A DNA stretch of 32,150 bases from a virus, in the UHGV virus genome UHGV-0070112, one strand, 5' to 3'. The notes below the pieces were generated by a model. The model was given only the letters and a program-made list of their open reading frames with translations. It ran no database searches and had not been told where the DNA came from. Below, in pieces: positions 4,252 to 18,906 of this stretch. Position numbers and translations under genes: made by a program. Within the stretch, counting starts at the first letter, position 1. Each line of letters starts with the position of its first letter.

Positions 4252-4881
4252 TCACACCAGTACTGATTTAGCCTGATTAAACAGCGCTCGGCGTTTATCC
4301 AGACCGTTGCGGCCACCGTTAATAAGCAGTGTTACGCGCTCAACATCACCGGAATGAAGCAGGCAACCGTGGGAGACATAAAACCATGCGGCCGAACGTG
4401 CAGCGTAATCATCTCGCTCCAGCAGCTCAGGCTGGGTAACAAGGTCAAGTTTCAGCGCCTGTCCGCAGCTGCGATAGTTGCTCAAGCCCGTAACTTGTTT
4501 CAGGCCGCGACCGCGATATTTCCAGCCATCACCAGCAACCTGATTACCGAGATTCTTTTTGCCCCACTCGCCCCCATACACCAGATTAGCGATTGCTCGC
4601 TGATTCGCTGGTTGTGTTGCCGTTCTGCCGAGTGCGGCGGCCTGCTGGGCGGTGATACGGTGTTTGCCGAACGTAGGAACAAGTCTGTCGGCGGCGTAGT
4701 TCAGGCTTTCCACCAACGTTGTATAACCACCGGATTCATGCCCCATCTGCGCGATGAACATCGCCTGATCGAGTGGAGCTGTGATACCGAATTCTTTCAT
4801 CGCAGCATCAATGTGCGGAAACCAGCGCGCAGCTAACCCGGCGCTGATACCAGCCGCCCGTTGAAATTGTGATTGGTTCAT
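4252..4881 (-). CDS. Endolysin, GH19 chitinase-like lysozyme
   Basis: 209 aa; motifs FIAQMGHESGG and NLVYGGEWGKKNLGN typical of GH19-type phage lysozymes. Sits between holin-like and spanin genes. Confidence 0.8.
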   Translation of the reverse strand: MNQSQFQRAAGISAGLAARWFPHIDAAMKEFGITAPLDQAMFIAQMGHESGGYTTLVESLNYAADRLVPTFGKHRITAQQAAALGRTATQPANQRAIANLVYGGEWGKKNLGNQVAGDGWKYRGRGLKQVTGLSNYRSCGQALKLDLVTQPELLERDDYAARSAAWFYVSHGCLLHSGDVERVTLLINGGRNGLDKRRALFNQAKSVLV

Positions 4882-5162
4882 CAGTGCCTCAGTGCATCAA
4901 CAAGCCGTGCTACATTGCCTCTTACGCTCAGCAGCACAACAAGGATCATGATATTGGCCCCGATGGTGGGCCATGTTGAATAGGGATAGATGCCGCACAG
5001 ATACGCCAGCGGCACAGAGCTGTATAACACTGTTATCAGCCATGCCAGCCGGGAGACCCACTTACGATGCCGTGAATCTCGACGGCGATAGAACATCAGA
5101 GTAACCACGATACCAGCGCATAACAGCGCATTGATTGTTGCTGTCGGATCATTTAGTACCAC
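4881..5162 (-). CDS. Lysis-cassette membrane protein (holin/antiholin-like)
   Basis: 93 aa with about three hydrophobic helices; immediately upstream of the endolysin. Confidence 0.5.
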   Translation of the reverse strand: MVLNDPTATINALLCAGIVVTLMFYRRRDSRHRKWVSRLAWLITVLYSSVPLAYLCGIYPYSTWPTIGANIMILVVLLSVRGNVARLVDALRH

Positions 5163-5535
5163 CGGAACCTCCCCGGCGCGTTATTAGCGCCACCAGCGAG
5201 CCAATATCCTGATTGTTCAGGAAGGTGAGTATTTTCACGGCCAATGCCGAAATGATTACGGCACCAATAGCATCCAGCGGTTTATCGCTGTATCCGGTAA
5301 GGGCTGATAGCTTGGAGCCTACTAACCCGGCGCACAGAACACCGGCGATATAGGACACCACGAAATAAGCCATACGCCGTGTTGCGCTCAAATCGGCAGC
5401 GGTCGCTATATAAAATACAGAACCAGCAAATGCCCCGAACACAACACCGTAATCAGTACCGGTTAACAGCCCGTAAACACTCGCACCCGTTAAAGCGCCG
5501 CCAGCTAAGCCTGTGCCGGTTATTGGTTCGGACAT
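5149..5535 (-). CDS. Putative holin
   Basis: 128 aa, Gly/Ala-rich with multiple TM segments; first gene of the lysis block. Confidence 0.55.
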   Translation of the reverse strand: MSEPITGTGLAGGALTGASVYGLLTGTDYGVVFGAFAGSVFYIATAADLSATRRMAYFVVSYIAGVLCAGLVGSKLSALTGYSDKPLDAIGAVIISALAVKILTFLNNQDIGSLVALITRRGGSGGTK

Positions 5536-5777
5536 CAGTCCCCCTCAATTGCTGTGAATCCTCTCAGAACGAGGGGAAAATGGAATGGTCGCCAGATAAC
5601 AGCCACCAAAAATCACTGTAAAAATATCAGGGTTCACCACCCTCTCAGACGGATTTATTCTTCTTGTTCAGTCTCGTCCGCGTACGAAGCCGAGGATGTA
5701 TCCAAGACCAAAACAAGAAAACCCGAATCCCACCACGGGTAAAACTGAATAAATAAAATAAGGCATAGGGAAATCTC

Positions 5778-6188
5778 ATGGAAATTATTTCAGTAATCGG
5801 GGTGATACTGACACTGCTAGGGCTATTTATACCGTCACTAATCAGTAACCATTCGGCACGTAAGGCAGAGTTCAGGAAGCAATCCGCGCCACTGCTGGGA
5901 AAGTTGCTAAGCGAAATTGAGGCTATTGAAGGAGGCTCTTATCCATTCAGGCTTATCAGCGATGCTGATTTCAACCAGTTGCTACCTTACGCCCCGAGGC
6001 GCAGGAAAAACGCCCTCCTTGATGCTTACACCAGTTATCTCGACGCTCATACGATGGCCACCACGAAGCACTGGCACGATGAACATCCATCCGATGGAAT
6101 GCTATTTTTCCCGACGGGTTTCTTAGTCACTAATTCAGATGAGGTACTGAAGAAAATGCAACCTCTGAAAAAAGAACTCAGCAGATAG
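5778..6188 (+). CDS. Hypothetical membrane-anchored protein (moron, plus strand)
   Basis: 136 aa with N-terminal TM helix (IISVIGVILTLLGLFIPSLI). Opposite strand to the lysis genes; 3' end overlaps the convergent ORF 6135..6656. Confidence 0.45.
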   Translation: MEIISVIGVILTLLGLFIPSLISNHSARKAEFRKQSAPLLGKLLSEIEAIEGGSYPFRLISDADFNQLLPYAPRRRKNALLDAYTSYLDAHTMATTKHWHDEHPSDGMLFFPTGFLVTNSDEVLKKMQPLKKELSR

Positions 6189-6656
6189 TCCTTTAGGATG
6201 GCCGCCAGATGGATTTACGACTAAACACTGAAAGTGAGTGACGTTCTGGCGCACAAATGAAAAAAGCCACGCAAATGCGCAGCCCTTAGAAACGAAAAAG
6301 CCACCCGAAGGTGGCTCACTGTTCAGCGTTAGAGGTATACCCACCTTCGCCTTTAATGCAGCGTTATCATCTTTCAGGCGATCTACTTGGTTTTGCAACC
6401 TTTCAATTTCCTTATCGGTGTTGTCTCGGTCGCGCTGAAGACCTTTTATTACTTCACCTTGGGACGCCTGTACTTCTTTTGAGGCCTGAACGGCCGCCTC
6501 AGTCTCATCGACGGTGTTAATTAAACGAACCGTCAGGAATGAAACAATGGCCATCAGAAGAACGACCATAGCGGTAAGAATCCAGACCTTCACGCCGGAA
6601 GCAGAATTATCAGAGGCTTCTATAAGAAATTCCTTATGAATAGAAAAAATACCCAA
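6135..6656 (-). CDS. TM plus coiled-coil protein, start and C-terminus uncertain
   Basis: TM helix (VKVWILTAMVVLLMAIVSFL) followed by a heptad-like segment (EIERLQNQVDRLKDDNAALKAKVG). No ATG start with RBS. The C-terminal third reads through a perfect hairpin at ~6296-6316 and looks non-protein-like. Confidence 0.35.
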   Translation of the reverse strand: MGIFSIHKEFLIEASDNSASGVKVWILTAMVVLLMAIVSFLTVRLINTVDETEAAVQASKEVQASQGEVIKGLQRDRDNTDKEIERLQNQVDRLKDDNAALKAKVGIPLTLNSEPPSGGFFVSKGCAFAWLFSFVRQNVTHFQCLVVNPSGGHPKGLSAEFFFQRLHFLQYLI

Positions 6657-7242
6657 CGCGCGGCCGCGACGTTAGAACCATGGGTATTTTAACTACATAA
6701 GGTTATGAAGATCTTCGGAAAAAATGAGATGATGGTTTGTTTGGTTATTTAATGAGCGAAAACAGCCAAAATCCCCATGCAGGGATGATAAAAAACGTCA
6801 TTGTGTAGACGACTGCAGGCTGTAATTTATTCAAATTAAATTTCCTTAGTAGGGCTCTATGTGTCCTACAACATCCAACCTACCTAAAGACATTGATTGA
6901 TACAAGAGGAAAAACACTACTTTTTTATCAAATTGGGATCGGTTTTGTTTCCGATGGCGCGGCATTATACGGAGATAACCCAAGTTATCAACAGAAATTG
7001 CCAGCATATGTACGCAAAATGTGCTGTTTCTAATTTTGAGATGGTTGTGGTGCCGGGTGCCTCCCGGTGAGCATGCCCCAACAGACATTACTCGCGCGGT
7101 ATTCACAGGGCTTTCGCTCTATTAGTTGGACGCCCCTCCGCATAGGGGGATTCACCACACGGATAATTTAGGATGTAGTCATAGGCGGCGTCAATAACTG
7201 ACACTCTGTCAAAGGCACCATTACGATGCCTTTTGCACAGTG

Positions 7243-7398
7243 CTAATCACTGGATCTAATAAGGGGCCAGAGCAAAGCGATTACCCCAGCTACCAGCACG
7301 CCATCAGCCAGGATTGACATCATTTTGCTGGTGAAGTCGATAGCAACCACCAGAAACAAAAGCACCCCGGCTGCGGCCCAGCGAAGTTTACCGATCAC
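7243..7398 (-). CDS. Hypothetical 51-aa two-TM peptide, coupled to TerB-like gene
   Basis: Manual translation (M)IGKLRWAAAGVLLFLVVAIDFTSKMMSILADGVLVAGVIALLWPLIRSSD. GTG start overlaps the TerB stop (GTGA). Below the track length cut-off. Confidence 0.35.
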   Translation of the reverse strand: MIGKLRWAAAGVLLFLVVAIDFTSKMMSILADGVLVAGVIALLWPLIRSSD

Positions 7399-7820
7399 AG
7401 GTACTGGTCCAGAGGAAGTTGCAGAGCTTGGGCAATTTTCTTCAGCTGTTTCTCTTCTTCTTCCCCGATACCGTCATTATCTGCTACATCAAGACACAGG
7501 CAAAGAACATCGACAGCGTCATCCGTCCCGGCAACATCAGCCAGTTCGCGCAACGCCTGAGCGTTGGCTGAACGCGGCGATGCTTCGTAACGAGCGCGAA
7601 TATTCGAACTCATCTGGGCAATTTCACCAGCAAATGGCGCGAATGCCGGCAGGGCCGAAATAGTCTTCTCCAGCACTGCAATCTCTTTTGCATCGCAGGT
7701 ACCATCGGCGTATGCAATCGAGTACGCTCCCCAGACCGTGGCTTCTACAGCATCGCGGTTTTCCATTTTTTTCACTTCAACAACGGCTTTACGGGCTTTC
7801 TTTTTAAAAATACCAAACAT
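7395..7820 (-). CDS. TerB-like domain protein
   Basis: 141 aa with acidic helical TerB-like core (CLCLDVADNDGIGEEEEKQLKKIAQALQL). AAGGA RBS upstream. Confidence 0.55.
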   Translation of the reverse strand: MFGIFKKKARKAVVEVKKMENRDAVEATVWGAYSIAYADGTCDAKEIAVLEKTISALPAFAPFAGEIAQMSSNIRARYEASPRSANAQALRELADVAGTDDAVDVLCLCLDVADNDGIGEEEEKQLKKIAQALQLPLDQYL

Positions 7821-7952
7821 AGTGACTTTCCTTTTAGCGGGTGAGCCAGCGCTCAGGAATGATCAGCCCACAGAGACAGTCACACTGACTATTCCCTATG
7901 GCTCACCCCTGAAAGGCTCTGTGGTTATATAACGCCGAGCGTGGCGCAGATA

Positions 7953-7977
7953 CGAAAAAGGCCCGCAAATGCGAGCC
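7953..7977 (-). terminator. Intrinsic terminator between late-leader region and TerB-like gene
   Basis: Minus-strand hairpin GGCUCGC-AUUU-GCGGGCC followed by UUUUU. Confidence 0.5.
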
Positions 7978-8373
7978 TGGTTGATCCGCTTACTGATACG
8001 GAGCGACCAACCTAAGTTGTCGCAGATTCAAATTGTGGCCCTGCCTTTAAGTCACTTTGCGCGCAGCTGGGACATGTAGTTTTCGCATCGTGATCGGGAT
8101 TCGCTTCAGGCGCTGGCCCCGCAGCCATATAAGTGCCGGTTACGGTTCCGGCCAGGCCTCTTCCTCAACGGGTTATTCTCCATACGGATTTCCGTTTGTT
8201 GGTCGTTCCTGCGATCTCAATTTTCCGGTTACGTTTATCCGGTGGCTTACGCCCGGTTTAGCCCTAAGGTAAGGGATTTGGTTGTGGTGGCAGGCGCCCA
8301 TCTCCTGCTTAACGTCAATCAACGCTTGCACATCGCTACGTTATGGGCCGGGATCAACCGATATTTTCGCTCG

Positions 8374-8476
8374 CCACAACGGAAAGAGCACTGGTAATCT
8401 GTAGCGGGTATTTACTCGCGCACGCCGTTTTGACGTGCGGCCCATTTCAGCATGGTCAATGATCTTACCTGTTGTG
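8374..8476 (-). other. Paired-motif element, late-leader copy
   Basis: Minus strand reads CACAACAGGTAAGATCATTG ... ~80 nt ... CCAGTGCTCTTTCCGTTGTGG; the two arms are imperfect reverse complements. A second copy is at 23361-23475 on the plus strand. No credible ORF in 7978-8538. Confidence 0.3.
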
Positions 8477-8538
8477 CGCTCCGTTTCGTGGAGCAGACGC
8501 CGCCGGAATCGCACCGGCAGAATCATCACATTGGTATA

Positions 8539-8570
8539 TGGTGCTGGTTGACGGAATCGAACCGCCGTAG
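8539..8570 (-). tRNA. tRNA 3' segment (T-arm, acceptor 3' strand, CCA)
   Basis: Minus strand ctac-GGCGG-TTCGATT-CCGTC-AACCAGC-A-CCA. Acceptor 3' strand AACCAGC is the exact complement of the 5' strand GCTGGTT at 9037-9043. Begins 1 nt after the HNH stop codon. Confidence 0.45.
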
Positions 8571-8990
8571 CTATTTCGTTATTTCCAATAAACCTGCGTG
8601 GACTTTTCTGTGGCAATTAGCACAGAGGACAATACACTTCCTCACTTCATCTTTAAGTCGATTTCGTGATCTGCCACATAGATTGGAAGGGTCGCCTTCT
8701 TTGCTGCCGGCGTTGTCATGATGAAGATCCAGAACAACAGGTTCTTTTTCTCCGCAATTTTGGCATCCTATGAAGCGTTTATATCGAGCTAGAAACTGAC
8801 GGTTTGAACTTGTTTTTCTCGTTCTCGTTGACTTTATTAGCTGTCGCCTTGACTCATTGGTTGCATAACTCAAAGCATCTCTTTCCTTAGCGCACGCCTT
8901 ACAGATATTTTGTAGGCCATCGCTCTTTCCTTTGTTTTTATGGAAATCGGAAGCAGATTTTAACTCTTTGCATTTGCTACAAATTTTCAT
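8571..8990 (-). CDS. HNH endonuclease with N-terminal Cys-rich motif
   Basis: 139 aa; N-terminal CSKCKELK...CKAC and C-terminal HNH motif (LDLHHDN...CANCHRKVH). AT-rich by eye. AGGA RBS. Lies between the two halves of the tRNA-like gene. Confidence 0.8.
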   Translation of the reverse strand: MKICSKCKELKSASDFHKNKGKSDGLQNICKACAKERDALSYATNESRRQLIKSTRTRKTSSNRQFLARYKRFIGCQNCGEKEPVVLDLHHDNAGSKEGDPSNLCGRSRNRLKDEVRKCIVLCANCHRKVHAGLLEITK

Positions 8991-9005
8991 CAGTATCCTA
9001 GGTCA

Positions 9006-9043
9006 TTACAAGGCAGGCGCTCTACCAGCTGAGCTAAACCAGC
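9006..9043 (-). tRNA. tRNA-Thr(UGU)-like 5' half (acceptor, D-arm, anticodon stem 5' strand and loop)
   Basis: Minus strand GCTGGTT-TA-GCTC-AGCTGGTA-GAGC-G-CCTGC-CTTGTAA with U33 and anticodon UGU. The expected 3' anticodon-stem strand GCAGG is absent; the sequence runs into the HNH RBS. Overlaps the last codons of the N6 methyltransferase. Confidence 0.45.
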
Positions 9044-10083
9044 AAATTGCGCATTTCACTGACCGTCTGTTCAAATCTCTCGGTTTCCAGTTCGACACCT
9101 AGTCCCCTTCGCCCGAGAAGAGCAGCCTGCTTGAGCGTTGAGCCTGATCCAAAAAAGAAATCAGCTACAACATCACCCGGGCGGCTACTCGCTGTGATTA
9201 TCTGCTCCAGCATATCCGCAGGCTTTTCACATGGGTGTTTACCTGGATAAAACTGAACAGGCTTATGAGTCCAGACGTCGGTATATGGCACCGTGACCGA
9301 TACGCTGAATGGTCGCCGTAAACGGTAATATTCCTGCTGGAGTTCAGAATATTTTCGGCTTAACGATTGCCAGGTAGCGACAAGCTGGTGGTGAGGTTTT
9401 CCCAGTTCGTTGCGTGAGTGCTTATCCATGGCGATTTTTTGAAACAAAGCCTGCAACTTTAAATAATCGGCTTCGTTCGGTAGCTGCCACTGACTAAGGC
9501 CAAACCAGTGGGAAACCATATTTTTCTTACCTGTGGCTTCTGCAATCTGAGCGGACGTCACGCCAAGAGATTCCCGTGCATCACGGAAGTAAGAAATTAA
9601 AGGCGTCATGACGTGTTGCTTTAACTCATTACACTTTGCGGCATATCCATCGTCTTTGGGCCTGTATGGCCCCTGATAATGGTCGGCAAAAATGATACGT
9701 TCCGTCGCCGGGAAATATGACCGGAGGCTTTCTTTATTGCATCCGTTCCAGCGTCCCGAAGGTTTAGCCCAGATGATATGGTTGAGCAGGTTAAACCGCT
9801 CTCTCACCAACAGCTCAATATCCGCTGCCAGGCGGTGCCCACAGAACAGATACATGCTGCCGGCAGGTTTTAACACTCGCCAGAACTGTGCCAGACAGCT
9901 ATCCAGCCAACGTAAATAGTCCTCGTCCCCCTTCCATTGGTTATCCCAGCCGTTTGGCTTCACCTTAAAGTAAGGCGGATCGGTAACAATAAGATCAATG
10001 GAGTTATCGGGTAGCGATGGGAGGTATTGCAGGCAATCAGCATTGATTAATTCAATACTGGATGTTTTTACAGTATTTTTCAT
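9034..10083 (-). CDS. DNA N6-adenine methyltransferase, beta class
   Basis: 349 aa; motif IV IVTDPPYF near the N-terminus and motif I FFFGSGSTL near the C-terminus, the beta-class order. No adjacent restriction endonuclease other than the small HNH ORF downstream. Confidence 0.8.
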   Translation of the reverse strand: MKNTVKTSSIELINADCLQYLPSLPDNSIDLIVTDPPYFKVKPNGWDNQWKGDEDYLRWLDSCLAQFWRVLKPAGSMYLFCGHRLAADIELLVRERFNLLNHIIWAKPSGRWNGCNKESLRSYFPATERIIFADHYQGPYRPKDDGYAAKCNELKQHVMTPLISYFRDARESLGVTSAQIAEATGKKNMVSHWFGLSQWQLPNEADYLKLQALFQKIAMDKHSRNELGKPHHQLVATWQSLSRKYSELQQEYYRLRRPFSVSVTVPYTDVWTHKPVQFYPGKHPCEKPADMLEQIITASSRPGDVVADFFFGSGSTLKQAALLGRRGLGVELETERFEQTVSEMRNLLV

Positions 10084-10232
10084 AGATCAGTAAGCGTAAC
10101 TCTGATAGGCTCACTTTGCTTTTGCGCTAAAGCAGTGGGCCGTGGTTAGCTTGTGACCTGAAAGCATGAGCTGATGGCTGGCCGGGTGCTACAACACCCA
10201 CCAGCCGCCCATTTTCACAGCAAAAGCCCCCA

Positions 10233-10424
10233 TTACTGGAGGCGCTTATAACATCCGAACTGATAATCAGATAACCCCGCCATTACCAGCTGCATAAGTA
10301 TGAGCTGGCAGCGTTCGCGGCTCAGGTGAGAACTCTGTGCAATCTCTCCAGCAGTAGCTGGTTTGTCACTTAGCTCATTCAAAACAGCCTTGGCTGTTTC
10401 CGTCATATCTTGCTGATTTAGCAT
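10233..10424 (-). CDS. Small winged-helix-like protein
   Basis: 63-aa ORF with helix-turn-helix-like core (ATAGEIAQSSHLSRERCQLILMQLVMAGL). First gene after the candidate late-operon terminator, upstream of the N6 methyltransferase. Confidence 0.45.
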   Translation of the reverse strand: MLNQQDMTETAKAVLNELSDKPATAGEIAQSSHLSRERCQLILMQLVMAGLSDYQFGCYKRLQ

Positions 10425-10503
10425 GTCTTTTACCTAAAAAAGTGGCGTGACATACAGATAACTCTCGTTACTGAGTACAGCAAGAAACAATCGCGATAAA
10501 CGT

Positions 10504-10524
10504 AAAAAAACCCGCCAGAGCGAG
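10504..10524 (-). terminator. Candidate tR'-like intrinsic terminator
   Basis: Minus strand CUCGC-UCUG-GCGGG followed by seven U. Sits ~120 nt downstream of a promoter-like TTGTCA/TTGTAA region in the 10525-10642 intergenic gap. Confidence 0.35.
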
Positions 10525-10642
10525 TTTTTAATGTTTAAGCTGTGTGTCGAAGTGACCACTCTTAACACGTTACATAACAAAATGCGGACCGCGTTAGTGA
10601 TTTTTTTATTTCCTCACGCTAAGGTAGGTTTACAAGAACGGA

Positions 10643-11527
10643 TTGACAAAAATTGAGGCAACCTTGGAAAGTTCGACCACCTTTAAAATCTTCTACGATG
10701 CTGAAGATGATGAGTTAGCACAGCATAAAATTGACGCGAAAACTTTAAGTCTTTCAATTGGCTCAATGGCAGAATTGATTTCCAAAGCAGATAAAAATCT
10801 TAATGACGGGCAAGAAACAGTCAAATTAATGGTTACAACACCTGCTGCTGAAGGCTCAATTGGTGTTGTTTATTCAATGATGGAGTTAGTCCCTAATGCT
10901 ATAAACGTGGCTAAAGTTATCGGTTTAACGGCAGCAGGAGGGGCTTTTATTGGTGCTCCCGCGCTTTCATTGATCCGGCAGTTAGGGAGTAAAAGAGTTA
11001 TATCGATTACTAAAAGACCCCAGACGCATGAAGCCGTCCTTGAGCTTGAAGATGGGGAAATTGTTTGTAACGATGCTGTTGCAAAATTAGTTACTGATCC
11101 TGAAATACGTCAAGCTCTGGTTAACGTCGTAAGGGCTCCTCTTGATGGTAAAACCAATCCTGTTTTTAAAATCCTTGACCAGGAAGGTAACGAGGTCTTG
11201 CGGCTTGAGAATGAGGAAACAGAAGAGGTAAAACCTTTACCTCGTGGTACACTTCTTGAAAAAGAAGTATCAATCGATGAGGTGAATGTTCGATTCGTCC
11301 AAGTGAACTTTGAAGGAAACAAAGGATGGAGAATTGATTACCTTGGGGATGAACATTCAGTTAGCCTAGATGACAACGTGTTCCTTTCTCAGGTCCAAGC
11401 TGCAACAGTGCAATTCTCCAAAGAAGATCTTTACGTTGTTGATCTAGAAACTATTAAAACGTACACAGCCCGTGGGGTAACGCATCGTTACACCATAAAG
11501 AAGGTTAAGCGTAAGCGCCCAGCGTAA
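10643..11527 (+). CDS. Hypothetical protein A of AT-rich three-gene cassette
   Basis: 294 aa, no recognisable catalytic motif. TTG start (first in-frame ATG is 40 codons in); AGGTAGG upstream. Visibly AT-rich. Convergent with Q. Confidence 0.45.
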   Translation: MTKIEATLESSTTFKIFYDAEDDELAQHKIDAKTLSLSIGSMAELISKADKNLNDGQETVKLMVTTPAAEGSIGVVYSMMELVPNAINVAKVIGLTAAGGAFIGAPALSLIRQLGSKRVISITKRPQTHEAVLELEDGEIVCNDAVAKLVTDPEIRQALVNVVRAPLDGKTNPVFKILDQEGNEVLRLENEETEEVKPLPRGTLLEKEVSIDEVNVRFVQVNFEGNKGWRIDYLGDEHSVSLDDNVFLSQVQAATVQFSKEDLYVVDLETIKTYTARGVTHRYTIKKVKRKRPA

Positions 11528-11533
11528 GTAGGA

Positions 11534-11800
11534 GTGATGGTAAACCAGCAACTTTTTGAACTAGCGATGTGGGTAGGGGTGATAATGGCTTCCCCCCTGC
11601 TTTTTCGTTTTTCATATGCTGCATCTGCCTTGTTATGGCGGAGGGTTTTCCCTACTCGTAAATTTGAGTTTTCGTATAAGGATGAAAATTCTCAAACCAT
11701 ACGCTCTGTAACAATCCTTATCCCAAGAAATAGAAGCAAAACCCTTGTTCAGTTGATAGATGAAGCCCGAAAGAACGGGGACAGAAACAGTGGCAAATGA
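11534..11800 (+). CDS. Hypothetical small membrane protein B of cassette
   Basis: 88 aa with one N-terminal TM helix (LFELAMWVGVIMASPLLF). Starts 7 nt after the gene A stop with AGGAG just upstream. Confidence 0.4.
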   Translation: MMVNQQLFELAMWVGVIMASPLLFRFSYAASALLWRRVFPTRKFEFSYKDENSQTIRSVTILIPRNRSKTLVQLIDEARKNGDRNSGK

Positions 11801-12206
11801 TAAGAAAACCACCAGTCCAGTGTCATCGACACTTTCAACTGGGGGCATAGGCATAATTCTATCTGGTTTGGTTACCTATTTTGTGCCAGAAACCAAGTCT
11901 GGACTAGCTAAGCTATTGTATTTATTCATCCCTTTTGTTTCAGCTATTTTGACCTACCTTATGGCTTGGGTTATAGCCCGGCATGGACTTGAATCTCCTG
12001 AAGATGCAGCCAAACGGGCAAACTTCTTGAGAGATTTAGCCACAATTGATGTTGAACTTGCTAATGATAACAACTCTGAAGAATTCAAGGAAAAGTTAAG
12101 AAAATCAAGAGAGAAAACTGTAGAGATGATGATTAACATTGGAAAGGAAAGCACTTTTACTTTCTTTGATAAAAGTAATGAACAATCAGCAAAGGGCAGC
12201 GATTAA
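11760..12206 (+). CDS. Hypothetical membrane protein C of cassette
   Basis: 148 aa with two TM helices (GGIGIILSGLVTYFV, LLYLFIPFVSAILTYLMAWVI) then a charged helical tail. Overlaps gene B by 41 nt in another frame; start may be GTG at 11790. Confidence 0.4.
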   Translation: MKPERTGTETVANDKKTTSPVSSTLSTGGIGIILSGLVTYFVPETKSGLAKLLYLFIPFVSAILTYLMAWVIARHGLESPEDAAKRANFLRDLATIDVELANDNNSEEFKEKLRKSREKTVEMMINIGKESTFTFFDKSNEQSAKGSD

Positions 12207-12221
12207 CTGCCCTCTTATAAC

Positions 12222-12587
12222 TTAACAATCTAGATCAAGACGGATGTCTAACATTGATAGACATCCGTCAATAAAACCTTCAGCCATCTGTATCTCGATC
12301 CGGATCAACTTCTCATCTTTCTTTTGCGCCTTAGCTATTTTACGTTTCGAGATACCGTACAGGTAATGAGCCACGAGCAAACTGTGCTCGTATGGCTTCT
12401 TTTCTCGAAGCCTTGCCAAACAGCCTTCTATGATCAGCGCATCATCATCAGTACAGCACAAGCGCGTTTTTCCGCCCTGCGGAAGAAGCCCCTTAAAACC
12501 TGCTGCAATGTGGGAATAATCAATACCGGAGCTGTCAGCTGCCGCCCAGCCTCCCCATAAATCTAAAACCTTTTGCATGTCACGCAT
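12222..12587 (-). CDS. Phage antitermination protein Q (QuuD-like)
   Basis: 121 aa; motifs LDLWGGWAA, FKGLL, CCTDDDALIIEGCLARL match the small Q-family antiterminators of lambdoid prophages as I recall them. Confidence 0.7.
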   Translation of the reverse strand: MRDMQKVLDLWGGWAAADSSGIDYSHIAAGFKGLLPQGGKTRLCCTDDDALIIEGCLARLREKKPYEHSLLVAHYLYGISKRKIAKAQKKDEKLIRIEIQMAEGFIDGCLSMLDIRLDLDC

Positions 12588-12604
12588 TCATATTCTCCAT
12601 ACAC

Positions 12605-13660
12605 TTATGCTTTTACAATGACGCCGATACCCATTACCCGATCCAGAAAACGAGCCCACAGCTCTAACTGAGTGCCATATTTCTTTTCGAACTCTGATGT
12701 ATTGGCGTGTAATTCATCGTGATGCACTCTGCACAGTGGTATCACGAAGAGATCATGGGCCTTGGTGCCAGTTCCCCCCAGACCATTCCCTATTATATGG
12801 TGTGGATCGTCTGATGGTTGCCTACAGCATTCACATGGCTGAGTTTTAACCCAACGTGTGTAAACTTCGCAGGTCCAGCGCCGGCGCTTTGGGCGGCGCA
12901 TAAATGATTCGGGGCTGTTCGGATCGACACTAAGCCTCAGAATGGGTTTACTTTCACTCTGAGTTTGCTCAATGAGTACACTGGCTTCCGCCAGGTCTAT
13001 GCCCTCGACAAGATCCTGAAGGATTTCACCTGCAGCAAATGACGGGACAATATCGCTATCCTTATAAACGGACAGGAAAGGTTCCTCAGGCAGTCTTAAG
13101 GCCTGTTGCGCCATCGTCTCGGTTATTGCGTCAGCAATGCCGGATTTCACAGCCCACCAGCAGAGCTCCGCCATCGATAATTCGCGCTCCTTATTGTATC
13201 CAAGGCTGATCTGCACCCTTTCAATCACCCACTGAACCAGATTCTGATAAGCCAGCTCTGACAACATTTCGGTGGCCTGCTCACGTAATTCATTATCACA
13301 ATGCCAGCAGACAACCATGGCGCCAGGCGGATGCCGCATAGTCACTAATTCATGGTGGTGATAGTGGGAATGCGGGTACTGGCACTCTCTGACATGTCGT
13401 AGAAGCCAGGCCTCAAGAGCGTTTATTCCACCAGCTGCGTTAATAACCCTCTCATCCCTCATGAAAAAACGCAGAATGTCCATTTCGGCAAGCGGCTGAC
13501 GTGCATCGGCGATCCGCCCAGTAGGCAGTGTTTTCATTTTCTCTGGCTGACGCTCTATCAGGACACGGCCGCCGGTAAAGAGAGACATCAATTCGCGGCC
13601 TGGTTTGAAAAGAACAACGCCCAGGCGCGGCACAATTTCCGGAGTAAGCAATGCTCGCAC
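12605..13660 (-). CDS. Phage protein with C-terminal HNH-like Cys/His motif (DUF968-like)
   Basis: 351 aa; C-terminal CECCRQPSDDPHHIIGNGLGGTGTKAHDLFVIPLCRVHHDELH. Family name is from recollection. Confidence 0.5.
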   Translation of the reverse strand: MRALLTPEIVPRLGVVLFKPGRELMSLFTGGRVLIERQPEKMKTLPTGRIADARQPLAEMDILRFFMRDERVINAAGGINALEAWLLRHVRECQYPHSHYHHHELVTMRHPPGAMVVCWHCDNELREQATEMLSELAYQNLVQWVIERVQISLGYNKERELSMAELCWWAVKSGIADAITETMAQQALRLPEEPFLSVYKDSDIVPSFAAGEILQDLVEGIDLAEASVLIEQTQSESKPILRLSVDPNSPESFMRRPKRRRWTCEVYTRWVKTQPCECCRQPSDDPHHIIGNGLGGTGTKAHDLFVIPLCRVHHDELHANTSEFEKKYGTQLELWARFLDRVMGIGVIVKA

Positions 13661-13668
13661 AATCCCCC

Positions 13669-14199
13669 CTAAACAGTCAGATCTTTAAGCTTCTGCACGG
13701 CTTTACCAACTTCAGCCATAGCATCTACGAACTCGTCAAACTTCCTGCTGGCCATTCCATATGCCTGGAGAATTTCCAACTTCAAGGGATCGAGCTGTTT
13801 CTTAATTTCTGCACGATCCCCTGCTTTTTTCTCCGCTTCCTCTGCCGCTTTGATCAAGGCGTCGGCCTGTTTACGTAATGCTTCCGGAGTTACTTCGAGC
13901 TGTTTATTCATTTTGCATTCCATCGTCGGCTGAGGAGGTGTCATTACAGGCGCCACAGATTTGTGACCATATTTCGGGTGGTGCAAGGTAGTAGACCTTC
14001 CATCATCTATCACGCAGAGCATCCCGCTTTCCCGGATTATTTCGATCAGGGTCTCTTTGTCTTTGCGATTGAGCCCACTGTATGCCGCCACTTTGTGCGT
14101 CAGGTGGGTTAGCGTTGCGCCTTCTGGTTGCCTCTCTACAAAACGCTTTACCCTGGAAAGCACTGGTTGCAGGTGTGGGGGAGTCATTCTCATGTTCAC
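13669..14199 (-). CDS. Hypothetical protein
   Basis: 176-aa ORF in the nin-like block; helical, Lys/Glu-rich C-terminal half. Confidence 0.45.
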   Translation of the reverse strand: MNMRMTPPHLQPVLSRVKRFVERQPEGATLTHLTHKVAAYSGLNRKDKETLIEIIRESGMLCVIDDGRSTTLHHPKYGHKSVAPVMTPPQPTMECKMNKQLEVTPEALRKQADALIKAAEEAEKKAGDRAEIKKQLDPLKLEILQAYGMASRKFDEFVDAMAEVGKAVQKLKDLTV

Positions 14200-14202
14200 C
14201 CC

Positions 14203-15045
14203 TTACTGCGTGACAACGCCAATGAGCTTTAAAAGCTCAGGAAATTTCGATTCGAAGAAGTGCGGTTGCGTCTCACGTGGATTTGCCGGGCTGGTGATGT
14301 TTTTACCGTACAGACAACCTTTTGCCGTAACAGACCAGAATCTTTTCACGCCATTGATACCCGTTCGGCTGCGGCGCTCCTTCTGCTCGACTATGCCGTG
14401 ACCAGCCATAAGGTGATAAGCCTGGTTCGCGGTCATTCTGATGTTGTTAGCTTTAAGCAAAGCGCTAAGAGACAGCGTTGGTCTGCTGGAACCATCCTGC
14501 GCGCCAGCTGGTGCATCAATGGCATATGAAGGCATTAAATCAGGCAGCCCTGCTACCTGCTGAAGCTTCTGATATGCCCCGAGCTTTGACGAATTAGAGA
14601 GATTGAGCATTTTGGCTGCAGATTCCAGGAGGATTATGCCGGCTTGAATGCGATCGGTATTGACGGTTGCAGCCCCAGCAGTGTGGAGCGCGTCAAACGT
14701 TCTGATGACCTTCAGATTAAAAACAGCGCTGATCCACATCGCGTAGGCATACACCAACTCACGGCAAACATAGGTACCTTGCTCATTTCCGCCGCGGATG
14801 ACACTTACAGGTTCTGAAATATCCGAGTTGCTATTTTGCAACTCGCCTATCAATTGCGCAGTTTGTTCGTTACGGAGCCAGAATGCAGGCTTATGGCGGT
14901 CAAGGGAGCCGGAAGCACGATGGAGATCGTTTAGGCAATAACGACCAAGGACATCACGACGAACAGAAATACCATCAATAACAAAAAAATTGTGATTATT
15001 GGATGCAGCAGCACCCATGACGTGGTTAGTCATAGCTTTCTCCAT
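14203..15045 (-). CDS. KilA-N domain protein (antirepressor-like)
   Basis: 280 aa; N-terminal FFVIDGISVRRDVLGRYCLNDLHRASG...KPAFWLRNEQT resembles the KilA-N domain. Confidence 0.55.
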   Translation of the reverse strand: MEKAMTNHVMGAAASNNHNFFVIDGISVRRDVLGRYCLNDLHRASGSLDRHKPAFWLRNEQTAQLIGELQNSNSDISEPVSVIRGGNEQGTYVCRELVYAYAMWISAVFNLKVIRTFDALHTAGAATVNTDRIQAGIILLESAAKMLNLSNSSKLGAYQKLQQVAGLPDLMPSYAIDAPAGAQDGSSRPTLSLSALLKANNIRMTANQAYHLMAGHGIVEQKERRSRTGINGVKRFWSVTAKGCLYGKNITSPANPRETQPHFFESKFPELLKLIGVVTQ

Positions 15046-15121
15046 ACATTTTTATGTGACGAAGGGCCTGCACGCCCGTTTCGTTTGCACTCTTTGACAT
15101 TACTGCCATATCGGCGAACTT

Positions 15122-15520
15122 TCAACCCACAGCTGTACATACATCCACCACTTTTTGATAGCAGACTATGGTGATTTCTACCCTGCCTCCTTTGACGATT
15201 TCACCCCATTCAATAGCCATACGCTTAACCTGGTTGTCGTCCTCCCAGATACCGGCATAAGTCAAAGCATCAAGAAGTGCCTTGTTGTAATTGTCCAGGT
15301 CACGCCGGCGATAGTCTGGCGGATAGAGAATAATTTCTACAGCTGCTGGCGCGGTAGATGGTTTTGGTATTGCACGCAGTTGCTCAATGATCGCTGACCG
15401 TACTGCATGTTTGAATTTACGGCCGGCTGCGCTGACAAGGTGTTTGCCTTTTGCGGGCCCCTTATTTGGGGACCGCCAGTAGGTGTTCACGCTGGGTGGG
15501 AATGGAAGAATAAATTTCAT
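15122..15520 (-). CDS. rusA: Holliday junction resolvase RusA
   Basis: 132 aa; PPSVNTYW and RRRDLDNYNKALLDALT are characteristic RusA motifs. Confidence 0.8.
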   Translation of the reverse strand: MKFILPFPPSVNTYWRSPNKGPAKGKHLVSAAGRKFKHAVRSAIIEQLRAIPKPSTAPAAVEIILYPPDYRRRDLDNYNKALLDALTYAGIWEDDNQVKRMAIEWGEIVKGGRVEITIVCYQKVVDVCTAVG

Positions 15521-15993
15521 TCTGCCTCCAGCACTATTTTCAACTCAAACGGAACATCTCCTCCGCAATAGCAGAGCGGGCCAAGGTCAGACATGAGGCT
15601 CCACAGGGTCATTGACGTATAGCCATTTTCGTCTGTTATCGGGGGCGAAAAGTCCCCGAAGATCCTCGGGTGCTGGATTCGATTCTGCTCGTGTTGTTTT
15701 TCCAAATGTCTGAGGGAAACTTCATTAAGTTTCACTTTTACGATGCTGTTGAGATTGACCGATATTTCTCTGGCCAACAGCGAAGGGGTGATACTGATAC
15801 CGCGAGAAACCCCGCGGGTGATTGTGATAACACCCTTTTTCTCCAACGCCTTGAGGTGTGTTGCTGCTGCATTGGGGGACCGGCACCCCAGCATGCCGGT
15901 CAGTTCGTAAGTTGTAGGCGGAAAACCATGTTTACGCTGATATTCGATCAGGAGGTCCAGGACCTCCTGCTGCCTTAAGGTCAAGGAAGTCAT
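15517..15993 (-). CDS. LexA-like N-terminal DNA-binding domain protein without S24 peptidase domain
   Basis: Start revised to ATG 15993 (MTSLTLRQQEVLDLLIEYQRKHGFPPTTYELTGMLGCRSPNAAATHLKALEKKGVI...), closely resembling the LexA winged-helix domain. C-terminal ~80 aa unrecognised. ATG overlaps the C5-MTase stop (ATGA); its own stop overlaps the rusA start. Confidence 0.6.
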   Translation of the reverse strand: MTSLTLRQQEVLDLLIEYQRKHGFPPTTYELTGMLGCRSPNAAATHLKALEKKGVITITRGVSRGISITPSLLAREISVNLNSIVKVKLNEVSLRHLEKQHEQNRIQHPRIFGDFSPPITDENGYTSMTLWSLMSDLGPLCYCGGDVPFELKIVLEAE

Positions 15994-17960
15994 GCTGCCT
16001 GCTCCTCTCTGTTCACGCACATTTCGGGTAAATTGGCGCGAACCAGCGCTTCGGCGAACGGCGGCGGGACGGCATTTCCACAGCGCGCAACCTGCTTATC
16101 TTTCGCGTATTTCACGCCGCGGTAATCCTGGTCAATGATGTACCACTCGGGGAAGCCCTGCGCCCGGTAAAGTTCGTGTGGCTGCAGCATGCGCATGCCG
16201 ATATCAACGATGCGGTAAGTCACTCCGCCGATTTCCACCAGACCGGTGCATTCCTCTCCGCAGTATTCCTGCAGGAACGACAGCACCTGCTGCGCTCGCT
16301 CTTCGTCATAGTCCTCGACTGCCAGAGTCGTTTTAACCTCGCCTACGTGCTGGCCACCAGCAGTGATAGTCGGCATCGGCTCGTCAGTGCGCTGGCCATC
16401 GCGGCATGTACCACGGAGCTTGATCAGATGAGACGTAACCATTGCGGCATCAGCCTTTGTCGTCATGGTTTGCAATGGCTCGCTAACGTCACGTGGCCTG
16501 CTCTGCCCAGCGCGACCGCCAACACCAACAATCTGAGCAGTAACCAGCGCATGATGATCGACGGTAGTAACTGAATGAGCTGGTTCATCCAAGTCAATAC
16601 CGGCGCCCTGATAATTCCCGCCATAGTGTTTCGCCAGGAATGCGGATACCAGTTGCGATTTACCGCCGCCGCCCGCGGTGATTGTTGCGCTAGGTTCGTC
16701 GGCACGGTGTCCGATGCTGGCGCCGAACTGCCGGGCGATAACCGGAGCGACGACACAGGCGCGCGATTCTTTCATGATGGTGTGAGCGGGTTTATCGAGC
16801 GGGCGTGGTTTAGCCTGGTACTCGCTGCCGCCATTGCCAGCCAGGAACGGCGCCAGCTCTGCTTCAACAATACCCAGAGCGTGACCATTCCCGCCCGGGC
16901 GTTTTGCGGTACCGGCCGTCACCGTCGGCAACGGATCGGTGACTTCCTGCCCGGTAGCTCCGGTTCGGAATTTTGTCAGATGAGGTACCGCAATTGCGTA
17001 GCCGTGGGTTTTCGTAATCGTCTGTAGCGGATCGTCCAGCGCCTGTCCCCGGAAACAGTCGTATTTGCCGCGTGTCGTTGTGTGATTGCACTTCACGATG
17101 AATGGCGAAGCGCTTTCGATAACAAAGCGCTGAATGCCGCGGGCAATCCGTTTTAGCGTATTCTCTGCCAGTGACTTTTTGCGACCGAAGATGCTCGGCG
17201 CGGGGATTGACCAGTCTATGCATTCCGCAGCTGTACGCCACGGCTCCAGCTGGCCCGCCAGCACGGCGGCAGACTTCGGATCCCCGTGCGTGGCTTCCGG
17301 CCAGACTATCGGTTTCCCGTCCCGGCGCATCACCATGAAGAACCGCTTACGGATGGTCGGCGCGCCATAATCGCAGGCGCGCAGCTCGCGAAAATCGACG
17401 ACATAACCAAGCCCGGCAATTAAGCGCTTGGCCTGCTCGCTATCCGGTGAAAACTCCAGAAACTCGCAACACTCCACCAGTGCAGGATGATCTGCTGGAA
17501 TACCGGTGGTAAGCATCCCGACAAATGCATTGAAAGTTTCACCGATGCGTGCCGGATCCGGTCGCATTTCTGCCGCGAGTAACGGACCCCACGTCTTAAA
17601 CTCTTCGACGTTTTCCAGCATCATGACTCGCGGGCCAACATCCAGCGCCCAACGAATGACGATCCATGCCAGCCCTCGAATAGCTTTCTCTACTGGTTTA
17701 GCACCTTTCGCTTTAGAAAAGTGACGACAGTCAGGCGAGAACCATGCCAGGCCGACAGGCTTGCCACTGGTAGCGGCTAATGGGGATACATCAAACACAC
17801 TTTCGCAATAGTGAAGCGTGTCGGGATGGTTAGTGCGGTGCATAGCAACGGCGTTAACATCGTGGTTAATCGCGATATCAACGCTACGCCCTATCGCCAG
17901 CTCAATACCTGTACTGGCGCCACCGCCACCAGCAAAATTATCGACAATAATCTCACGCAT
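15990..17960 (-). CDS. DNA cytosine-5 methyltransferase with a long, repeat-containing variable region
   Basis: 656 aa; motif I FAGGGGAS, catalytic-Cys region FSPDCRHFS, ENV motif MLENVEEF, C-terminal motif-X-like CGNAVPPPFAEAL. About 450 aa between ENV and motif X carry reiterated segments (LPTVTAG, SATITAGGGG, MPTITAGG, LQTMTT, LQTITKT). Confidence 0.85.
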   Translation of the reverse strand: MREIIVDNFAGGGGASTGIELAIGRSVDIAINHDVNAVAMHRTNHPDTLHYCESVFDVSPLAATSGKPVGLAWFSPDCRHFSKAKGAKPVEKAIRGLAWIVIRWALDVGPRVMMLENVEEFKTWGPLLAAEMRPDPARIGETFNAFVGMLTTGIPADHPALVECCEFLEFSPDSEQAKRLIAGLGYVVDFRELRACDYGAPTIRKRFFMVMRRDGKPIVWPEATHGDPKSAAVLAGQLEPWRTAAECIDWSIPAPSIFGRKKSLAENTLKRIARGIQRFVIESASPFIVKCNHTTTRGKYDCFRGQALDDPLQTITKTHGYAIAVPHLTKFRTGATGQEVTDPLPTVTAGTAKRPGGNGHALGIVEAELAPFLAGNGGSEYQAKPRPLDKPAHTIMKESRACVVAPVIARQFGASIGHRADEPSATITAGGGGKSQLVSAFLAKHYGGNYQGAGIDLDEPAHSVTTVDHHALVTAQIVGVGGRAGQSRPRDVSEPLQTMTTKADAAMVTSHLIKLRGTCRDGQRTDEPMPTITAGGQHVGEVKTTLAVEDYDEERAQQVLSFLQEYCGEECTGLVEIGGVTYRIVDIGMRMLQPHELYRAQGFPEWYIIDQDYRGVKYAKDKQVARCGNAVPPPFAEALVRANLPEMCVNREEQAA

Positions 17961-18906
17961 GAGCGGTCCCCCTCATGCTGCCGACCAGCCCACCAGCAAG
18001 GGTGATGATTTCGCTGGTGGGCACGCGCTCCAGCCACAACTGGTTAATATGGGCCTTCAGCTTGTTCTGCTGGGAGAACTCCAGATCCTCTGCGCCTTGT
18101 ACCTGTCCAAAGACGAGTCCAACTTCCAGTGGCCAGATCCGGGATTCAGGCTCAGCCAATGATGCAACAGCATCGGGGATGATCACTTCAGGAGACTGAA
18201 CTGGCGAAACTGGTGACAGGAATTTTCCTGCAGCAAACTCAGCCAGCGCCATACTTGCGCGCCCTTTTGCTTCCAGCTCAACGCGATCGATATAGCTAAA
18301 ATGTTCACCGCGCCAGGTCTTATCAAATACCGCAATGGCCCCGGCAAAGAATGCGCTGGTGGGCTTCTGCTTTTCGTCGGCCGGCACAAACCACGTTGGG
18401 AGATCGAATCCAATACGACCACGAATAAACATGATGTGATCGGCATATTCCGGCCACCATGTTTCACTTGTTGCTGACTTCACGAGGTAAATGTAACGAC
18501 CACCCTTTTCACGCTGCTCGGCGGTATAGTTCATAATATGAGTCATGCCAGTGATGGCTTGTTTTTCATGGTACTGCGAGCGGCTGTACGGCGGATTAGC
18601 AAAGGCCGCTCCTCCGAGTTCTACCAGACGACCAGACCAGTCCTGCGTCAGCGCATTATCTTCAGCGGTATACCATGCCGGGCATTTTGTATTGCTGTCG
18701 TCTGCAAACAGGTCCAGCACCAGCGGGCCAAACAAAGCGTTAACGCCCCAGAACAGCAGATCAGGGGTACGCCATTGATCCCCGACTTCTTTCAAATAAT
18801 GCGAACTTCGCTGGCGCTGTTCCTCAAGTGCCAGGCAATAAGGGCTGACGCTTTTTGTTAAATTTTGCTCTTCTGCGGTCATAGCTTCTTGTACTTCCTG
18901 ACTCAT
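17953..18906 (-). CDS. Phage Dam-type DNA N6-adenine methyltransferase
   Basis: 317 aa; DLFADDSNTKCPAWYTAED and AFANPPYS motifs of the phage Dam family. GGGGA RBS. Has an extra ~100-aa C-terminal region. Confidence 0.8.
   Translation of the reverse strand: MSQEVQEAMTAEEQNLTKSVSPYCLALEEQRQRSSHYLKEVGDQWRTPDLLFWGVNALFGPLVLDLFADDSNTKCPAWYTAEDNALTQDWSGRLVELGGAAFANPPYSRSQYHEKQAITGMTHIMNYTAEQREKGGRYIYLVKSATSETWWPEYADHIMFIRGRIGFDLPTWFVPADEKQKPTSAFFAGAIAVFDKTWRGEHFSYIDRVELEAKGRASMALAEFAAGKFLSPVSPVQSPEVIIPDAVASLAEPESRIWPLEVGLVFGQVQGAEDLEFSQQNKLKAHINQLWLERVPTSEIITLAGGLVGSMRGTAHA

Follow-up and report, generated by a model that had tools for sequence, protein, structure and literature searches.

The genes tciA and tciB lie on the minus strand of a 32,150-nucleotide (nt) stretch of virus genome UHGV-0070112 (here called the window) and form a pair that travels together across unrelated phage lineages. 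A preliminary description of this stretch had singled out a TerB-like gene and a hydrophobic open reading frame (ORF) of 51 codons whose GTG start overlaps its stop codon, and had proposed the two as a membrane-associated accessory module. Both ORFs were found where that description had placed them (Table 1). The product of the first, which starts with ATG, shared 84.4% identity with phage P1 TciA over all 141 residues; the second begins within ctGTGAtc and overlaps the TGA stop codon of tciA by 4 nt. In P1 (AF234172, 70233 to 70929), TciA also has 141 residues and a TciB homologue is encoded immediately downstream, in the gene order tciA, tciB, tciC, with a single base common to tciB and the tciA stop codon (TGATG). 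The TciB peptides of the window and of P1 were 43% identical and fell into the same Pfam and PHROG families. By sequence, the pair is the TciA/TciB module first named in P1.

The proposal of an accessory module held insofar as the pair is genuinely coupled and conserved and one partner is strongly hydrophobic; as a discovery it did not, since the module already bears the names TciA and TciB in P1. GenBank, PGAP, PHROGs, and Pfam already annotate it under this identity, and it is not an unrecognised module. On Escherichia coli chromosomes, the pair appears as "tellurite resistance TerB family protein" and "DUF3927 family protein"; on 668 P1-like and SSU5-like plasmids, as "tellurite/colicin resistance protein" and "DUF3927"; and in Escherichia phages, as "tellurite resistance protein" and "TciB-like protein." The window itself contributes no new kind of element. 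What the present analysis adds is the breadth and tightness of the tciA-tciB coupling, the substitution of TerC for TciB in Vibrio phages, the equivalence of the locus to the stx slot of Shiga toxin phages, and a conserved helix in the tciA leader by which the Shine-Dalgarno region is occluded. TciA proteins 100% identical to that of the window occurred in nine IMG/VR contigs, three of which also encode an identical TciB. Because the closest phage record was Klebsiella phage Kp4866-6 (96 to 97%) and the window variant of the small RNA (sRNA) STnc100 found matches in Klebsiella phages only, the carrier of the pair is probably a lambdoid prophage of Klebsiella type.

To quantify the coupling, we used 102 loci that contain the 3′ end of a tciA homologue, the window included. 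A coupled hydrophobic ORF of 49 to 55 codons followed tciA directly in 99 of these, amounting to 58 distinct peptides. Its start codon was GTG in 80 loci, ATG in 18, and TTG in 1, and the junction was coupled throughout (GTGA or ATGA in 82 loci, TAATG in 16, and TAAATG in 1). Of the remaining three loci, one was a contig of 221 nt, and on the other two contigs the copy was frameshifted. In the reverse direction, TciA was encoded directly upstream in 78 of 79 viral loci centered on TciB. The small ORF is conserved in related phages, and a TerB-like homologue nearly always has it as its downstream neighbor, the opposite of the two observations that the preliminary description had named as speaking against the module.

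The pairing persisted at a TerB identity of only 35 to 66%, in N4-like, jumbo, Pseudomonas, and Pantoea phages. Divergent pairs were present in the N4-like Salmonella phage SP-076, Erwinia jumbo phage ChrisDB (gp7), Pseudomonas phage ZY21, and Pantoea phage LIET2 (gp074), and the peptides of all four have the signature ...DG...WP(L/V)(I/V)K in common. The pair was also found in SSU5-like phage-plasmids such as pJN2-26, so that its range takes in P1-like, SSU5-like, lambdoid, N4-like, jumbo, and Pseudomonas/Pantoea phages. The TciB-like ORF of ZY21 is annotated too short, at 39 residues (1055 to 1174); a 62-residue reading (986 to 1174) that starts 3 nt after the TerB stop codon brings back the first hydrophobic segment. 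Three Vibrio N4-like phages had no TciB-like peptide. In all three, a TerC gene lies directly upstream of the TerB gene, and two of them (BUCT194 and PhiImVa-1) have another TerB gene ahead of TerC.

The coupled ORF, being small, beginning with GTG, and lacking an obvious Shine-Dalgarno sequence, could be taken for a chance ORF beside a TerB-like gene that alone is real. Its conservation and substitution pattern refute this reading, to which we assign a practically negligible probability. Length is preserved among the 58 distinct peptides in 99 loci. Computed on 57 distinct 51-codon alleles, the ratio of nonsynonymous to synonymous substitution rates (dN/dS) was 0.13 overall, against 1.4 and 3.8 in the shifted frames, and the constraint extended to both halves (0.10 and 0.14). 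The dN/dS measurement, which the preliminary description had suggested as a check, thus came out in favor of the small ORF. The peptide matched Pfam DUF3927 (PF13064; 51.7 bits; cut-off, 25; E = 9 × 10−14) and the "TciB-like" family phrog_1470 (79.8 bits), and residues R6, D21, F22, S28, D32, G33, and P45 were invariant. On these sequence grounds, tciB is a real gene. Among Pfam families, DUF3927 was the sole match, and no likeness to TerC or to any holin family was detected.

TciA matched phrog_632 over its full length (216 bits) and Pfam TerB (PF05099) over residues 15 to 57, a partial match (30 bits; cut-off, 24.4; E = 7 × 10−7). Similarity to the solved TerB structure 2JXU ran along the full length of the protein, and a TerB-like fold was recovered. 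The duplicated acidic motif xADG...E is kept in both halves: AYADGTCDAKE and VADNDGIGEEEE of TciA line up with ASDGVSSEEK and AKSDGNFDDDEK of 2JXU. Residues D39, G40, E46, and G117 were invariant, D114 was present in at least 90% of sequences, and dN/dS was 0.026. TciA is a cytoplasmic single-domain protein of TerB fold under very strong purifying selection. The subfamily also carries an invariant cysteine, C42, and two others, C107 and C109, in at least 90% of sequences (motif VLCLCLD); 2JXU has no cysteines at the aligned positions. The N terminus, MFGxFKKKxRK, is nearly invariant, and AlphaFold2 (AF2) gave it a predicted local distance difference test (pLDDT) score of <50. A search of NCBIfam returned nothing for TciA or TciB.

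The relatives of the pair point to a membrane. TerB-TerC of the ter operons (terZABCDE) resembles it in the fold and motifs of TerB and in a TerB gene adjoining a membrane-protein gene; TciB, in contrast, has about 51 residues and no detectable similarity to the multipass TerC, and the cysteines of TciA set it apart from TerB. The TerC-TerB complex has been described as the central Ter unit (PMC12054061). TerB has been reported to be membrane associated, and the Bunzi defence system contains a protein whose TerB-type domain is set at the inner membrane by a transmembrane (TM) segment (10.1101/2022.05.11.491447). From such membrane-tethered TerB proteins the window pair differs in that its hydrophobic segment is a separate, probably cotranslated polypeptide. 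DjlA and YebE are further membrane-tethered TerB-domain proteins.

The model we favor, with middling confidence, is that TciB is the membrane partner of cytoplasmic TciA and that the two act during lytic growth as a minimal analogue of TerB-TerC. Because start and stop codons overlap, TciB would be made by termination-reinitiation, in step with TciA. As an inner-membrane protein it would dock or receive TciA, making the pair a minimal analogue both of the TerB-TerC unit and of TerB-domain proteins with a built-in TM segment. The Vibrio N4-like phages that swap TciB for a TerC gene adjoining TerB are consistent with the logic of a membrane partner. Most likely, in our view, the pair would condition the inner membrane of the infected cell, through ion or metal balance or through energisation, and the conditioned membrane would protect the infection against further insults, for example superinfecting phages, pore-forming colicins, or membrane-triggered defences, rather than set the time of lysis. 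TerB is among the oldest unsolved parts of the system for tellurite resistance, phage inhibition, and colicin resistance, and its domains are now being met in newly described defence systems. In phages the question comes down to a pair of very small proteins that would always be produced jointly, a compact handle on the role of TerB at the membrane.

A group of results weighs against this model. In P1, tciA, tciB, and tciC were nonessential in a CRISPR interference screen (PMC10695390). The partners do occur apart: TciB is found without TciA in E. coli E2348/69 PP2 and in locus L189, truncated copies lie in phages 434 and 2B8, and Pseudomonas phage PMBT3 has TerB alone. Near-identical TciA proteins pair with TciB peptides just 34 to 58% identical to that of the window, so any interface must rest on few invariant residues. 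An exhaustive profile search of 1.84 billion representatives yielded 99 TciB clusters at 50% identity, nearly all free-standing and of 40 to 70 residues, and no genuine fusion of TerB to DUF3927. Regarding topology, hydropathy gave two hydrophobic segments (about residues 7 to 22 and 26 to 47) with basic residues at both ends; AF2 modelled TciB alone as a single continuous helix from residue 2 to 48 (pLDDT, 94), in which the hairpin was not confirmed, and placed a break at D32/G33 when TciB was part of a fused sequence of P1 type. The earlier designation of TciB as a two-TM peptide is no more than the simplest interpretation.

The few longer hits of the profile search looked, on reading of their sequences, like frameshift or chimeric artefacts. 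One 196-residue protein joining TerB and DUF3927 (P0215) was considered as a Rosetta-stone fusion and rejected as such evidence; it occurs on a single contig, and its junction resembles an indel. With an alignment restricted to TciA, AF2 modelled the TerB part of P0215 confidently and the TciB part with a pLDDT of only 56 to 77. The orphan DUF3927 gene of E2348/69 (in the region 740129 to 741328 of NC_011601) has a TTG start and follows a gene for a 247-residue hypothetical protein with multiple TM segments, not a TerB gene. The sRNA just behind it is PasD2, not PasA; the published PasD2 starts 41 nt after the orphan gene, the position that STnc100 takes after tciB in the window.

We next considered when the pair is likely to be expressed. 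The preliminary description had assigned it to the late operon, and its strand is indeed that of Q and of the genes for lysis, with an intrinsic terminator preceding it. The terminator scan placed this element 138 nt upstream of tciA, as a stem of eight base pairs (six G-C) with TTTTTCG behind it. The hairpin and U-run were kept at this position in 14 of 15 aligned loci, and two pairs of the stem were preserved through GC-to-CG swaps, found in six sequences each. Between terminator and tciA lies a structured leader, in whose long helix CCUUU (7916 to 7912) pairs with AAAGG (7834 to 7830) of the Shine-Dalgarno region. Leader identity was 86 to 96% in nearly all lambdoid loci, and the leader of phage JLK-2012 was 84% identical at the nucleotide level, though TciA of that phage is only about 43% identical. 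The noncoding region comprising the terminator and about 130 nt of leader (7821 to 7979) is more conserved than the coding sequence. The minimum free energy of the leader was −50 kcal/mol (z = −2.24). In the consensus fold, pairing held in 96% of cells, compared to 38 to 42% with slid partners; covariation was limited because the sequence barely varies. The leader found no match in Rfam, and no conserved promoter was visible in its alignment. In P1, the C1-controlled Pban promoters precede tciA and tciB, and ban follows them; no promoter is annotated for the two genes themselves, and the region upstream of P1 tciA gave no blastn match to the structured leader of the lambdoid loci.

Given the upstream terminator, a leader that has no conserved promoter, and the C1-controlled position in P1, expression in the lytic phase appears likely. 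The module would be transcribed only upon lytic read-through of the terminator, dependent on Q in the window and on derepression from C1 in P1, and the leader helix occluding the Shine-Dalgarno region would further gate translation of tciA. N4-like and jumbo phages that carry the pair are strictly lytic (PMC4319500).

The same evidence bears on whether TciAB is a lysogenic-conversion moron, expressed in the lysogen and conferring Ter-like traits such as superinfection exclusion or colicin or tellurite resistance. PHROGs places both families in the class "moron, auxiliary metabolic gene and host takeover," and published work connects ter operons with resistance to colicins and the inhibition of phages (PMC7371120, PMC12054061). 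The location of the pair would also suit such a role. In Stx2 phages, the stx2AB moron follows Q, the late terminator, and tRNAs and lies directly upstream of STnc100, which begins 75 nt after the stx2 operon (PMC12370729); in the window, STnc100 lies 54 nt after the tciB stop codon, so tciAB occupies an stx-type moron slot, between Q and the genes for lysis. Phage JLK-2012 shows a comparable order, Q-tRNAs-tciA-tciB-esterase-S-R-Rz. The cargo of the window slot, unlike that of the Stx2 phages, is unrelated and includes no toxin. Conversion is nevertheless disfavored by the terminator upstream of a leader without a conserved promoter, by the position of the P1 genes downstream of C1-repressed promoters, and by the presence of the pair in strictly lytic N4-like and jumbo phages. 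In addition, a PADLOC scan of TciA and TciB (E up to 0.01) matched no defence-system model. We consider this reading unlikely.

The occurrence in lytic phages and the extreme conservation of TciA would suit an anti-defence decoy, a phage mimic of TerB that jams the TerB-domain membrane sensors or subunits of host systems (Ter/Phi, Bunzi, and Shango). TerB domains are present in Bunzi, Shango, and Ter (10.1101/2022.05.11.491447), and terC contributes to phage resistance in Klebsiella pneumoniae (PMC12054061). A decoy does not obviously need a dedicated cotranslated membrane peptide, however, and Vibrio phages equipped with TerC and two TerB genes look as if they import the function rather than block it. 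We doubt this explanation as much as we doubt conversion. The name tci itself suggests another role, inhibition of cell division, by which TciAB would block septation during lytic growth, and the P1 transcription unit does carry a dicF-like region as well. That name is based on homology only, filamentation has not been assigned to TerB itself, and we found no division-related domain in Pfam or PHROGs, making this role distinctly improbable. PMC4633105 bears on both the decoy and the division-inhibition readings.

Lysis timing, which the preliminary description had offered as one example of a function, was not favored by the comparison. A small hydrophobic peptide encoded upstream of the holins could in principle be an antiholin or holin modulator, and in some relatives (UMNK88 and many IMG/VR loci) the holin gene follows tciB at a distance of about 100 nt. 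In the window, however, about 1.7 kb separate the pair from the holin genes, and this interval contains the sRNA, a separate moron, and an ORF on the opposite strand. The P1 pair belongs to the ban operon, and no annotated lysis gene lies beside the pair in P1 or in N4-like, SSU5-like, and jumbo phages. TciB matched no holin family and lies outside the lysis cassette, where the holins are separate genes. A lysis-timing module is thus very unlikely.

Returning to the membrane-partner model, a more ambitious version of it would treat TciA-TciB as a self-sufficient, phage-borne miniature of TerB-TerC. In this version, the peptide, a hairpin with invariant D21 and D32, would oligomerise into an ion or metal site in the inner membrane, regulated by a cytoplasmic, metal-binding TerB domain and switched at the level of synthesis by the leader helix that occludes the Shine-Dalgarno region, and at least six unrelated phage lineages would use it to hold a productive membrane state or to exclude competitors. 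We regard this extended version as speculative and rather unlikely.

Downstream of tciB, the preliminary description had reported about 740 bp without credible ORFs. The stretch measured 586 bp (6657 to 7242) and was not empty. Its lack of credible ORFs stood; an 86-residue ORF at 6846 to 7106 (minus strand) overlaps STnc100, spans a mosaic junction, and is lost in relatives that share only one side, and it was rejected. Within the stretch, we identified an STnc100 homologue, a call that rests on the Rfam covariance model (71.6 bits; gathering cut-off, 47; E = 1 × 10−13; model positions 1 to 206). STnc100, a family of sRNAs from prophages, is related to PasD (bioRxiv 10.64898/2026.05.13.724894). 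In the window its 3′ terminator part has been replaced beyond a mosaic junction at about 7031 to 7045: homology with Kp4866-6 and locus L027 stops at about 7045, and homology with E. coli M172-1 begins at 7031. The columns of the 3′ hairpin were mismatched, and the terminator scan found no terminator at the 3′ end of the sRNA. Single-sequence folding of the region was not more stable than that of shuffled sequences (z = −0.24). By blastn, an STnc100 core was located near tciAB in about 49 of the 102 loci; of 19 loci put to Rfam, 9 had STnc100 behind tciB and another had it ahead of tciA. The variant found in the window is unannotated in its Klebsiella phage records.

The second feature of the stretch, a promoter-like site matching at 11 of 12 positions, probably serves the next gene and lies outside the tciAB module. 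It falls in a block (7031 to 6290) whose counterpart in E. coli M172-1, 87% identical, begins about 250 nt past the Q gene. The next ORF has a 130-residue hypothetical homologue in M172-1, with the start MHKEF, and a weak match to phrog_3671. Tandem terminators at 6317 to 6298 and 6287 to 6262 overlap its 3′ end. The segment from 6135 to 6991 (minus strand), with promoter-like site, ORF, and two terminators, looks like a self-contained moron.

Table 1. Features of the window bearing on the tciAB locus
Feature	Position	Strand	Description
Q	12222-12587	−	Pfam Phage_antitermQ; same strand as the pair
Intrinsic terminator upstream of tciA	7950-7978	−	Stem-loop 7978-7959, then T-run
Structured 5′ leader of tciA	7821-7949	−	Hairpin GCGCC-N6-GGCGC and long helix of 16 pairs
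tciA	7395-7820	−	TerB family, 141 residues, P1 TciA orthologue (phrog_632, Pfam TerB, P1 identity, dN/dS)
tciB	7243-7398	−	DUF3927, 51 residues, GTG start (Pfam, phrog_1470, 99/102 loci, dN/dS)
STnc100-family sRNA homologue	6989-7189	−	Rfam RF02076; core intact
Sigma-70 promoter-like site	6964-6991	−	TTGATA-16-TATAAT
Next ORF	6135-6656	−	One TM segment and a coiled coil; TTG start; bounds the ORF-poor stretch
Holins	5149-5535 and 4881-5162	−	Downstream of the pair
Endolysin	4252-4881	−	Downstream of the pair

The genes flanking the pair (4252 to 6656 and 8571 to 18906 were scanned) included Q, methyltransferases, an HNH endonuclease, holins, and the endolysin, and none was terZ, terA, terC, terD, or terE; no ter cluster surrounds the pair in these scanned regions. 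Whereas the P1 pair sits in the C1-controlled ban operon, that of the window sits in a lambdoid late operon behind a terminator. A tblastn search with P1 TciC returned nothing credible in the window, and among the loci only P1 and one P1-like contig carried it. The two phages do resemble each other upstream of tciA, where the window retains a tRNA-Thr 3′ end and fragments of the spacer between the P1 tRNAs and tciA. The tRNA piece (8539 to 8565, minus strand) is a 27-nt fragment matching P1 and JLK-2012 and follows directly on the HNH endonuclease gene (8571 to 8990); two further fragments (8458 to 8502 and 8132 to 8213, minus strand) match the P1 plp/upl spacer that precedes tciA. ARAGORN detected no intact tRNA in the window.

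A 136-residue ORF with a hydrophobic N terminus lies on the opposite strand (5778 to 6188, plus strand), flanked by the moron and the holin genes; it matched nothing in Pfam, PHROGs, PADLOC, or NCBIfam. Three DNA methyltransferase genes lie on the minus strand at 9034 to 10083, 15990 to 17960, and 17953 to 18906 (N6_N4_Mtase, C-5 cytosine methylase, and Dam). Between Q and the late region are two further ORFs: one of 148 residues (11760 to 12206), which had no family match, and, preceding it and oriented opposite to Q, one of 294 residues (10643 to 11527, plus strand) that matched the PADLOC candidate defence family PDC-S42 (106 bits; E = 6 × 10−31).

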